Assembly: GCA_963789435.1 (NCBI GenBank)
Contig: CAWBKO010000007.1
Span: 189,364-253,363, forward strand
Source: an uncultured Chloroflexia bacterium
GTDB lineage: Bacteria; Chloroflexota; Limnocylindria; QHBO01
DNA: 64,000 nucleotides
Direction: 5' to 3'
The notes below the pieces were generated by a model. That model saw only the letters and a program-made list of their open reading frames with translations, ran no database searches and was not told where the DNA came from. Position numbers and translations under genes: made by a program. The stretch's first letter is position 1. Each line of letters begins with the position of its first letter. This document shows, piece after piece, positions 14,941-16,960 of this stretch.

Positions 14941-16960
14941 ATGAGCGAGGACCTCACGCCGCGCGAGGTCGCCCGTGAGCTGGGCGTCACGGTGCGGACG
15001 GTGCAGCGCTGGATTGCCGACGGACGGCTGGCTGCGACTCGCGTTGGCTCCCGGGTTCGGGTGTCGCGTTCGTCGCTGTCGAGCGTGTCGGATACGGGCA
15101 CGGCGCCGCCGCACCCGATCACCTCGCTCCTCATCGCCAACCGCGGCGAGATCGCGGTGCGGGTGGCCCGCAGCGCGCGGCGCATGGGACTCCGCGTGAT
15201 CGGCGTCCATGCGGCCGACGAGCGCGCCCCGACCGGCATCGATGAATCCCACGAGATCGGCTCATACCTCGACCCAGACGAGCTGCTTGCGGTGGCGCGC
15301 CGCTCGGGCGCCGACGCAATCCATCCCGGCTACGGCTTCCTTGCCGAGAACGCCGCCTTTGCTCGGGCGGTGACGGAGTCCGGGCTCACCTGGGTGGGCC
15401 CGCCACCGGAGGCCATCGCCGCCATGGGCGACAAGGCGGCGGCGCGGCGGCAGGCGGCGGCGCACGGCGTACCCGTCGTTCCGGGCTACGACGGCGCCGC
15501 CCAGGACGACGCAACCCTGTCGGCCGAGGCCGAGCGCATCGGCTTCCCGCTGCTCGTCAAGCCCAGCGCCGGCGGCGGCGGCAAGGGCATGCGGGTCGTG
15601 CGCGACTCCGCGGAGCTCGCCGAGGCGCTGGGCGCCGCTCGGCGTGAGGCGCATCGGTCGTTCGCCGACGATCGGCTGATCCTGGAGCGCTACCTGGAGG
15701 GACCGCGACACGTCGAGCTCCAGGTCCTGTTCGATGCGCACGGCGCCGGGATGCATCTCGGCGAGCGCGACTGCTCGGCGCAGCGCCGAAACCAGAAGAT
15801 CGTGGAAGAGGCTCCGGCCCCCTCGGTCACTCCCGAGCTGCGCGCGCGGATGGGCGACGCGGCAATCGCGGTCGCGGCGTCGGTGGGCTACGTGAATGCC
15901 GGTACGGTGGAGATGCTGCTGACCGATGCCGGCGAGTTCTTCTTCCTGGAGATGAACACGCGGCTCCAGGTCGAGCATCCCGTCACGGAGCTTGTCACCG
16001 GACGCGACCTGGTCGGCGATCAGCTGCGGATCGCGGGCGGCGAGACACTGGCGGCGCTCGGTCTGCGGTCCCCGCCCCCGATCCGCGGGCATGCCATCGA
16101 GGCGCGGCTCTACGCGGAGGATCCGGAGGCGGGCTTCCTGCCGGCGACCGGGCGGATCTCGCACCTGCGGTGGCCGGATGGCGTTCGGATCGATGCCGGC
16201 ATCGAGGAGGGCGACGAGATCGGTGACCGATACGACCCGATGCTCGCCAAGGTCATCGCGCACGGGCGCACGCGACGCGAGGCGATCGAACGCCTGCAGG
16301 CGGCCCTCACGGCCACCGCCGTGCTCGGCGTGCGGACCAACCTGCGCTTCCTGCGCTGGCTGCTCGCGCAGGACGCGATGCGTGACGGCGAGATGCGGAC
16401 CGACACGATCGGAATGCTGGACCTGCCCGCCCCGCCGACGATCGAGCCGTCGCACTGGCAGATCGCCGCGTCACTGCTCAGCCCGGCCTCGGCCGACCCG
16501 TGGGCGGGCGGTTGGCGAGTGGCTGCGGCGCCCACGCTTCGCCTGCGCCACGGTGAGGAGGAGCGCGGCGTGACCGTGGCGATGCCCGGGCGAGCCGCCG
16601 CCCGCCGTGCGTGACGGCGCCGCGGTGCACGTCGACGTCGACGGGCAGTCGCTCGAGTTCGAGCTGGCGCCCGCGCCGACCGTCGAGGACGCCGTCCGGC
16701 ACGCCTCGGCGGTGGCCGGCGAGGGCGCATCGGTCCTGACGGCTCCGATGCCGGGACGGGTGATCGCCGTGCGTGCCGCCGAGGGCGCGGCGATCGCCGC
16801 GCACCAGCCGGTCGTCATCATCGAGGCGATGAAGATGGAGCACGCCGTCGTCGCCCCGCTCGGCGGCCGCCTGGCCAGGCTGCACGTCTCCGAAGGCCAG
16901 CAGGTGCGGCGCGGCGACGTGCTCGCCGAGGTCGCCGCCTACCATGAGGCCGATGGCTGA
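14941..16960 (+). CDS. mccA: MCC biotin carboxylase/BCCP (alpha) subunit with N-terminal HTH_17 (excisionase-like) domain; one frameshift near 16600
   Basis: LTPREVARELGVTVRTVQRWI..GRL.A.RVG..VRV in frame with LLIANRGEIA, IHPGYGFLAEN, GGGGKGMR and FLEMNTRLQVEHPVTE. The biotinyl EAMKMEH motif is in the shifted frame. Confidence 0.92.

Follow-up and report, generated by a model that had tools for sequence, protein, structure and literature searches.

A helix-turn-helix domain fused to the methylcrotonyl-CoA carboxylase alpha subunit of Limnocylindria, and a candidate operator at its own promoter

Trigger enzymes with a built-in DNA-binding domain include PutA (a ribbon-helix-helix domain with proline dehydrogenase), BirA (a winged helix-turn-helix with biotin ligase) and NadR. 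In Escherichia coli the balance of carboxylase subunits is feedback-controlled; AccB reportedly represses accBC, and the carboxyltransferase is said to bind its own mRNA. LiuR, a MerR-family protein, is reported to regulate the liu genes in Proteobacteria. Few enzyme families have been studied as well as the biotin-dependent carboxylases, and to our knowledge none of these has a DNA-binding domain. Here we analyse a 64,000-nt stretch of DNA (the window) from an uncultured Chloroflexia bacterium of the lineage Limnocylindria (assembly GCA_963789435.1, contig CAWBKO010000007.1, positions 189,364 to 253,363 of the forward strand), in which a gene at 14941-16960 encodes the alpha subunit of 3-methylcrotonyl-CoA carboxylase (MCC) preceded by a helix-turn-helix (HTH) domain. 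We refer to the gene as HTH-mccA and to its product as HTH-MccA.

The fusion joins the following parts, for which structural confidence was taken from AlphaFold2 (AF2) models as the predicted local distance difference test (pLDDT):

14953..15078, plus strand: HTH_17/excisionase-type winged helix-turn-helix, aa 5-46 (PF12728 and TIGR01764; recognition helix VRTVQRW; Arg-rich wing RVGSRVRVSR)
15079..15117, plus strand: variable Ser/Pro/Ala linker, aa 47-59, ~13 residues (pairwise identity 0.30; AF2 pLDDT <50 at residues 51-56)
15118..16410, plus strand: biotin carboxylase part of MCC alpha, aa 60-490 (Pfam matches Biotin_carb_N, ATP-grasp and Biotin_carb_C)

From the ATG at 14941 the frame reads MSEDLTPREVARELGVTVRTVQRWIADGRLAATRVGSRVRVSRSSLSSVSDTGTAPPHPITSLLIANRGEIA and continues without a stop codon from the HTH into biotin carboxylase. 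A preliminary description, made from the letters of the window, had placed the N-terminus in the HTH_17/excisionase family, and a profile scan agrees. Residues 5-46 score 44 bits against PF12728 (HTH_17) in the whole protein and 50 bits alone (cut-off 27), and 47-52 bits against the excisionase-family DNA-binding model TIGR01764 (cut-off 28.8); the MerR profile scores 24-28 bits, below HTH_17. The enzyme part matches PF00289 (107 bits), PF02786 (CPSase_L_D2, 229 bits) and PF02785 (119 bits). For an intact orthologue, the top solved match is the Pseudomonas aeruginosa MCC alpha subunit 3u9s (527 bits, residues 57-664), against 423 bits for the alpha subunit of propionyl-CoA carboxylase (PCC). 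As this alignment starts only at residue 57, the first 56 residues are an addition. Two further statements of the preliminary description stand: that canonical MCC alpha has no DNA-binding domain, and that the enzyme is MCC alpha. Its beta partner matches 3u9r, and pathway genes lie on either side. The predicted activity of HTH-MccA is the carboxylation of 3-methylcrotonyl-CoA. We know of no solved or described MCC, PCC, acetyl-CoA carboxylase or pyruvate carboxylase with such an N-terminal HTH and linker.

The fusion recurs well beyond this contig. A scan of species-representative genomes with the HTH peptide matched 127 genomes, nearly all labelled Limnocylindria or Chloroflexota, and the 80 loci that were fetched are those analysed throughout. 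These loci were gathered with an alignment of the HTH only, a query of aa 1-140 having been swamped by ordinary biotin carboxylases. This architecture search upheld the proposed fusion, with the HTH in frame with the carboxylase in 80/80 species loci. The best 120 homologues are 71-92% identical and 666-690 aa long, and nearly all combine PF12728 with the carboxylase domains; when the HTH alone was scored in proteins of this size there were 438 matches, the top 120 of which all had the fusion architecture. Their source names include Candidatus Limnocylindria, and their product names 'excisionase family DNA binding protein' and '3-methylcrotonyl-CoA carboxylase alpha subunit'. Database naming is inconsistent, and both 'excisionase family DNA binding protein' and 'biotin carboxylase N-terminal domain-containing protein' hide what the protein is. 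A search of 1.8 billion proteins through representatives returned ~55 clusters at E<=1e-10, which consisted largely of fragments and carried no taxonomy.

Within the class, we sampled 200 Limnocylindria genomes, among them those of the families f1 (that of the window), f2 and f3 (sister). The fusion is present in ~65/67 f1 genomes and ~26/66 f3 genomes, the latter with diverged HTH subtypes (ELSPSEVARRLGTSTRTVQRWI... and GPGEAARRLGVTTRTVQRWL...), in 0 of ~60 f2 genomes and in none of 358 other Chloroflexota genomes. Family f2 has an unfused mccA of 45% identity in the same hydratase-mccA-lyase order, its start usually lying on the hydratase stop codon. As a Rosetta-stone test we looked for a stand-alone HTH beside the unfused f2 gene and found none; mccA follows the hydratase directly. 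The fusion is thus fixed in most of f1 and part of f3, it is old, and it is confined to one uncultured class, Limnocylindria. We found no description of an HTH-carboxylase fusion in the full-text literature. Six contigs carrying the Limnocylindria-type cluster (L084, L105, L128, L101, L123 and L157) are filed under Steroidobacteraceae, Methylomirabilota, Dormiibacterota or Pleomorphomonadaceae bins and are probably mis-binned or mislabelled. N-terminal extensions seen in Occultella and a myxobacterium proved spurious, the HTH being absent from them.

To judge the HTH itself, we compared its AF2 model with solved structures. The predicted secondary structure (helices 7-14 and 18-27, strands 32-35 and 38-42, helix 43-53) is that of a MerR-like winged helix, with a pLDDT of 84 when the domain is modelled on its own and of 66-79 in the full-length model, where a low-confidence linker follows and then a high-confidence carboxylase. 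Foldseek placed it nearest to Xis of mycobacteriophage Pukovnik (4j2n; TM 0.82, 38% identity), with the BldC-DNA complex (6ama) at TM 0.72 and RdfS and the RacA-DNA complex among the further matches; all of this nearest set bind DNA. In BldC, residues K26, T27, T29, R30 and W31 of the recognition helix contact DNA together with the basic wing, and the R30A mutant no longer binds (PMC5859096). Their aligned counterparts in HTH-MccA are R19, T20, Q22, R23 and W24, which are invariant in 58 diverse homologues and kept in the diverged f3 subtypes. The recognition helix RTVQRW does not vary, and 19/42 columns of the HTH are invariant. Averaged over sequence pairs, identity reaches 0.85 in the HTH and 0.76 in the ATP-grasp core and drops to 0.30 in the linker, against 0.68-0.85 in the domains on either side of it. 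The HTH figure is somewhat inflated, a point against autoregulation, since the loci were fished with the nine residues VTVRTVQRW. The HTH is an independently folded domain on a flexible linker, and from sequence and model it looks like a working DNA binder. Tandem arrays of a related HTH_17 domain, 5-7 copies each, occur in the metagenome proteins P0188, P0200, P0215 and P0234 (480-860 aa).

Directly before the gene lies a short element of unusual constancy:

14925..14939, plus strand: motif TGCGACAATCGCGAC, candidate operator for the HTH (extended -10-like element plus discriminator CGCGAC; also a direct repeat of 9-bp period)
14941..14943, plus strand: start codon ATG of HTH-mccA, 7 nt 3' of the -10-like hexamer

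The geometry of TGCGACAATCGCGAC is that of an extended -10, with TG at 14925-14926, one intervening base and GACAAT at 14928-14933. It can also be read as a direct repeat with a 9-bp period, GCGACAATC / GCGAC.ATG, giving the two units GCGACAATC and GCGACATGN; the promoter stretch with both GCGAC units is TGCGACAATCGCGACATG, and the promoter segment is spelled CTCTGCGACAATCGCGACATGAGC. Across the species loci the 15-mer is exact in 68/80 and within <=2 mismatches in 79/80. It abuts the start codon without a spacer in 77 loci, in flanks that are unrelated between species, and the start codon sits at the same place in the relatives (ATG in 56, GTG in 23). When all 13,000 15-mers of window positions 8000-21000 were ranked by species count, TGCGACAATCGCGAC came first, with 68 against 55 for the DNA that encodes AMKMEH at the biotinylation site, a stretch covered by fewer loci. 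The 2.35-Mb genome contains it only once, and the same generally holds for f1 genomes. Family f3 retains the core CGACAATCGCG, with 3-5 nt more between it and the ATG, and a third subtype has the promoter GCGACAAAC-G(C/T)GACATT. Four of five unfused f2 mccA genes are without the motif and show translational coupling to the hydratase gene. In one locus, L177 (G155:C117), the element is doubled, with GATGCGCGACAATCGCG twice, 26 nt apart, 5' of the fused gene.

The preliminary description had pointed to the promoter at 9830-9856, that of the beta-subunit gene mccB, as a possible second binding site. Used as an internal control in the same loci, this promoter conserves only ~7 nt, (G/C)ATAATC, that is, the -10 hexamer (CATAAT in the window) and a C, while its discriminator and spacing vary. 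We therefore rejected it as a shared operator, since it is a plain -10 hexamer; the candidate site lies on the promoter of HTH-mccA and none is shared with mccB.

Neither a known RNA element nor a classical -35/-10 promoter was found around 14900. Given that the extended -10 sits 6-7 nt before the start codon, we infer that the mccA mRNA is leaderless. Hexamers of the -10 type (TAnnAT) at 6-7 nt before long open reading frames (ORFs) are enriched 5-11 fold genome-wide and include TAGAAT, TAGGAT, TAGCAT, TACCAT and CACAAT, with examples in the window at 9840-9856 and 17850-17869. In the Limnocylindria lineage, leaderless transcripts seem to be the norm, and within clusters they often start at individual genes.

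These data allow us to propose a mechanism by which HTH-MccA might control its own synthesis. The HTH would bind DNA in the manner of BldC and Xis, one domain per 9-bp unit and head to tail, and its target would be TGCGACAATCGCGAC, which overlaps the -10 region and the predicted transcription start of its own leaderless mRNA. The bound enzyme would block RNA polymerase and so repress its own synthesis, probably together with that of the downstream 3-hydroxy-3-methylglutaryl-CoA (HMG-CoA) lyase. We put at about even the chances that the HTH occupies the -10 and start site of its own promoter and acts there as a repressor. More speculatively, the repressor could be alpha subunit outside the alpha6-beta6 holoenzyme, or differently exposed within it, or substrate could relieve repression; alpha supply might in this way be matched to mccB, a gene with its own promoter 5 kb upstream. 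A bolder version, which we offer tentatively and think less probable, is that the 750-kDa MCC is itself a BldC-like repressor, its tethered HTHs sitting on the two-unit 9-bp repeat over the -10 and start, with occupancy set by MccB assembly, acyl-CoA or biotinylation state. The element TGCGACAATCGCGAC is certainly a promoter as judged by its sequence, because similar elements serve unrelated genes in genomes without the HTH. That it is also the operator of the HTH is our inference from its unusual invariance, its 9-bp repeat form and the matching DNA-binding domain encoded by the very gene it precedes. The preliminary description had called HTH-MccA a trigger enzyme that may autoregulate leucine catabolism; the invariant contact residues and the conserved motif on its own promoter are in keeping with this, but the same type of motif also occurs in genomes that have no such HTH.

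Several observations weigh against autoregulation and deserve to be set out together. The domain falls short of the BldC family model NF033787 (29.4 bits; cut-off 77), so that at most it works like BldC and is not a member of that family. In the genome of the window (G000), >200 long ORFs have a -10-like hexamer 6-7 nt before an ATG or GTG and no Shine-Dalgarno sequence. The loose form of the core, CGACAWTNNCGNC(0-6)RTG, occurs ~5 times per genome against 0.15 for a reversed control, which makes the core a recurrent promoter type. The form TGCGACAATCGCG stands directly before a methyltransferase-like gene in three f3 genomes, before priA in another and before other genes, and 3 of the 4 genomes with it before the methyltransferase-like gene or priA have neither the fusion nor a close HTH homologue. 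The unfused mccA of L185 (G061:C47), from a genome without such an HTH, carries at its start GCCGACAATGCCGACATG, the same 9-bp-period form as in the fused genes; this may be the ancestral promoter. Finally, a tally of per-genome counts against fusion status showed that extra near-motif sites are no commoner in fusion genomes, and since there is no such excess, no regulon corroborates the operator. A wider regulon was accordingly rejected: near-motif sites precede unrelated genes, also in HTH-less genomes. The methyltransferase-like gene (337 aa, MPLDDRFEDL...GFYRAWVIQLG...; start TGCGACAATCGCG(G/C)CC..ATG) was seen in L194, L195 and L196 (G050, G125 and G200), two of which are without the fusion, and the priA gene is that of G188 (L188).

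One way to read these points is that the HTH does bind DNA and that the 15-mer is no more than a leaderless promoter under strong constraint; the real target would then lie elsewhere, or binding would be non-specific, as in nucleoid tethering by RacA, one of the nearest solved structures. In its favour, the same 13-mer serves unrelated genes in HTH-less genomes, a similar promoter precedes the unfused mccA of G061 and leaderless promoters are general in this genome. We nevertheless consider it rather unlikely, given that the remaining promoters of these loci show much weaker conservation, that the 15-mer occurs once per genome and tops the ranking of 13,000 positions, and that no other candidate target was found. 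Alternatively, the HTH may no longer bind DNA and serve instead as a protein-protein or assembly module of the carboxylase. The HTH is attached to the N-terminus of the biotin carboxylase domain, a domain that forms trimer contacts in MCC holoenzymes such as 3u9s, and in the full-length model AF2 places the HTH with only moderate confidence (66-79). Yet this role is unlikely: all residues matching the DNA contacts of BldC are invariant, the Arg-rich wing is kept, and the variable linker, with its predicted disorder, is what one would expect of a domain that is tethered but accessible. Autoregulation through TGCGACAATCGCGAC thus remains our preferred reading, at the even chance given above.

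The quality of the assembly bears both on the fusion and on the integrity of the enzyme. The preliminary description took 14941-16960 as a single ORF with intact catalytic and biotinyl motifs. The junction from HTH to biotin carboxylase is indeed free of stops and the motifs are present as motifs, but 2020 nt is not divisible by 3 and the motifs occupy two reading frames, because a frameshift that it had missed splits mccA in this assembly:

16583..16592, plus strand: frameshift site (CCCGGGC run, one base over the relatives' length; premature TGA 16612-16614 in frame 1)
16586..16960, plus strand: C-terminal segment and biotinyl (BCCP) domain in the shifted frame (PF00364, 59 bits; AMKM 16826-16837; stop 16958-16960)

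Frame 1 ends at this TGA after 557 aa, and the biotinyl domain (EAMKM, Lys codon 16832-16834) is found in the next frame, in the ORF 16607-16960. With the intact 672-aa relative P0002 as query, tblastn high-scoring segment pairs cover 14941-16587 in frame 1 and 16586-16957 in frame 2, which puts the frame switch at 16586-16588, inside the run ATGCCCGGGCGAGCC. At this run the window has one base more than its closest relative, and DNA alignment to L081 requires a 1-nt gap. The shifted-frame segment is 96% identical to residues 549-672 of P0002, and the biotinyl domain is in frame in 59 intact relatives.

An assembly this prone to error might be suspected of having produced the fusion itself, by misjoining or by faulty gene calling. 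We regard that as next to impossible: the same in-frame junction is present in each of the 80 species genomes, which are independent of one another, and hundreds of metagenome proteins of varied origin share it. A fusion kept throughout a bacterial class is no artefact. The premature TGA, which is present in the assembly as given, could instead mean that the gene is a real pseudogene in this organism, broken at ~16586. This too is very unlikely, as both halves are 92-96% identical to the intact relative and show no further defect. Moreover, four genes within 5 kb (window 12500-17400) each carry a single frameshift and are otherwise well conserved, at ~12770 in a glyoxalase-like gene, ~14646 in an enoyl-CoA hydratase, ~16586 in mccA and ~17340-17355 in HMG-CoA lyase. 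Among the 80 related loci, shortened mccA copies that are not cut by a contig end all come from 'MFD' assemblies, which we took as long-read from their names alone, and copies from other assemblies are intact at 655-680 aa. The source genome also has a completeness score of only 61% despite a normal size of 2.35 Mb in 9 contigs; this figure is probably an underestimate. Since the neighbouring genes are frameshifted too, the break at ~16586 is most likely a long-read assembly error and not biology. Overall, the assembly seems to have about one indel error per 1-2 kb.

The genes around HTH-mccA are consistent with a function in leucine degradation:

9854..11452, plus strand: mccB, carboxyltransferase beta subunit, intact (PF01039; own -10 CATAAT 9840-9845, 8 nt 5' of the ATG)
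14084..14921, plus strand: enoyl-CoA hydratase of methylglutaconyl-CoA hydratase type (ECH_1 match split over two ORFs at profile positions 161/162; tblastn in two frames; frameshift near 14646)
16944..17859, plus strand: HMG-CoA lyase (NF004283, hydroxymethylglutaryl-CoA lyase; tblastn in two frames; frameshift near 17340-17355)

The mccB product scores 780 bits against the MCC beta subunit 3u9r and <=282 bits against PCC beta subunits, and the start of the HMG-CoA lyase gene overlaps the end of mccA. The full order is a DUF6812-like ORF, mccB, the glyoxalase-like gene (minus strand), an SseB-like gene, enoyl-CoA hydratase, HTH-mccA, HMG-CoA lyase and a nucleoside hydrolase, and this order is kept in ~70 related loci. 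The SseB-like gene (13152-14135; PF07179, N-terminal domain) lies between mccB and the hydratase in ~73/80 related loci, and the ORF with the weak DUF6812 match (8892-9812), directly 5' of mccB, is conserved in ~50.

Compared with described systems, HTH-MccA resembles MCC alpha (MccA/LiuD, 3u9s) in its biotin carboxylase domain, BT-like segment, BCCP domain, MCC-type beta partner and hydratase and HMG-CoA lyase neighbours, and differs by the 56 additional N-terminal residues of HTH and linker. Its HTH shares with BldC, Xis and RdfS the fold of a MerR-like winged helix-turn-helix without dimerisation or effector domain (TM 0.72-0.82) and the contact positions (R/K, T, R and W on the recognition helix, and a basic wing). 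While BldC, Xis and RdfS exist as free proteins 55-70 aa long, the HTH here is a predicted binder tethered to a 610-aa enzyme subunit. BldC binds the whiI-opt site CAATTCGGACAATTCGGACA with one protomer per 9-bp direct repeat, head to tail, and the candidate site described here likewise has a 9-bp period and a GACAAT core. A MerR-like HTH tied to leucine catabolic genes is also what LiuR offers, but LiuR is reportedly a separate protein with a coiled coil and an effector domain that binds palindromes as a dimer; no such coiled-coil or effector domain follows the HTH of HTH-MccA, only the 13-residue variable linker and then the carboxylase.

If the proposed mechanism holds, HTH-MccA would be the first case of a transcription factor built into a biotin-dependent carboxylase and a new member of the short list of trigger enzymes, and would extend BldC/Xis-type direct-repeat binding to an enzyme-tethered domain. 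The fusion and its one-per-genome candidate operator make a simple system that can be tested in vitro and could show how a metabolic complex controls its own synthesis. They also bear on gene regulation in Limnocylindria, an abundant soil lineage with no cultured models and apparently heavy use of leaderless transcripts. With catalytic and DNA-binding domains in one protein, HTH-MccA has the makeup of a trigger enzyme. As in PutA, BirA and NadR, enzyme and DNA-binding domain share one chain, and the position of the candidate operator, on the promoter of the gene itself, points naturally to autoregulation; HTH-MccA differs in enzyme class and HTH type, and in being a predicted regulator. It would parallel the acetyl-CoA carboxylase of E. 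coli, in which a subunit of a biotin-dependent carboxylase feeds back on its own expression and balances subunit supply. There, AccB is without a recognisable DNA-binding domain and AccD acts at the mRNA level through a zinc finger, whereas here a canonical winged HTH is fused to the subunit that carries biotin carboxylase and BCCP. The kind of system, a trigger enzyme or an autoregulated carboxylase subunit, is already known; what is new is the HTH-carboxylase architecture.

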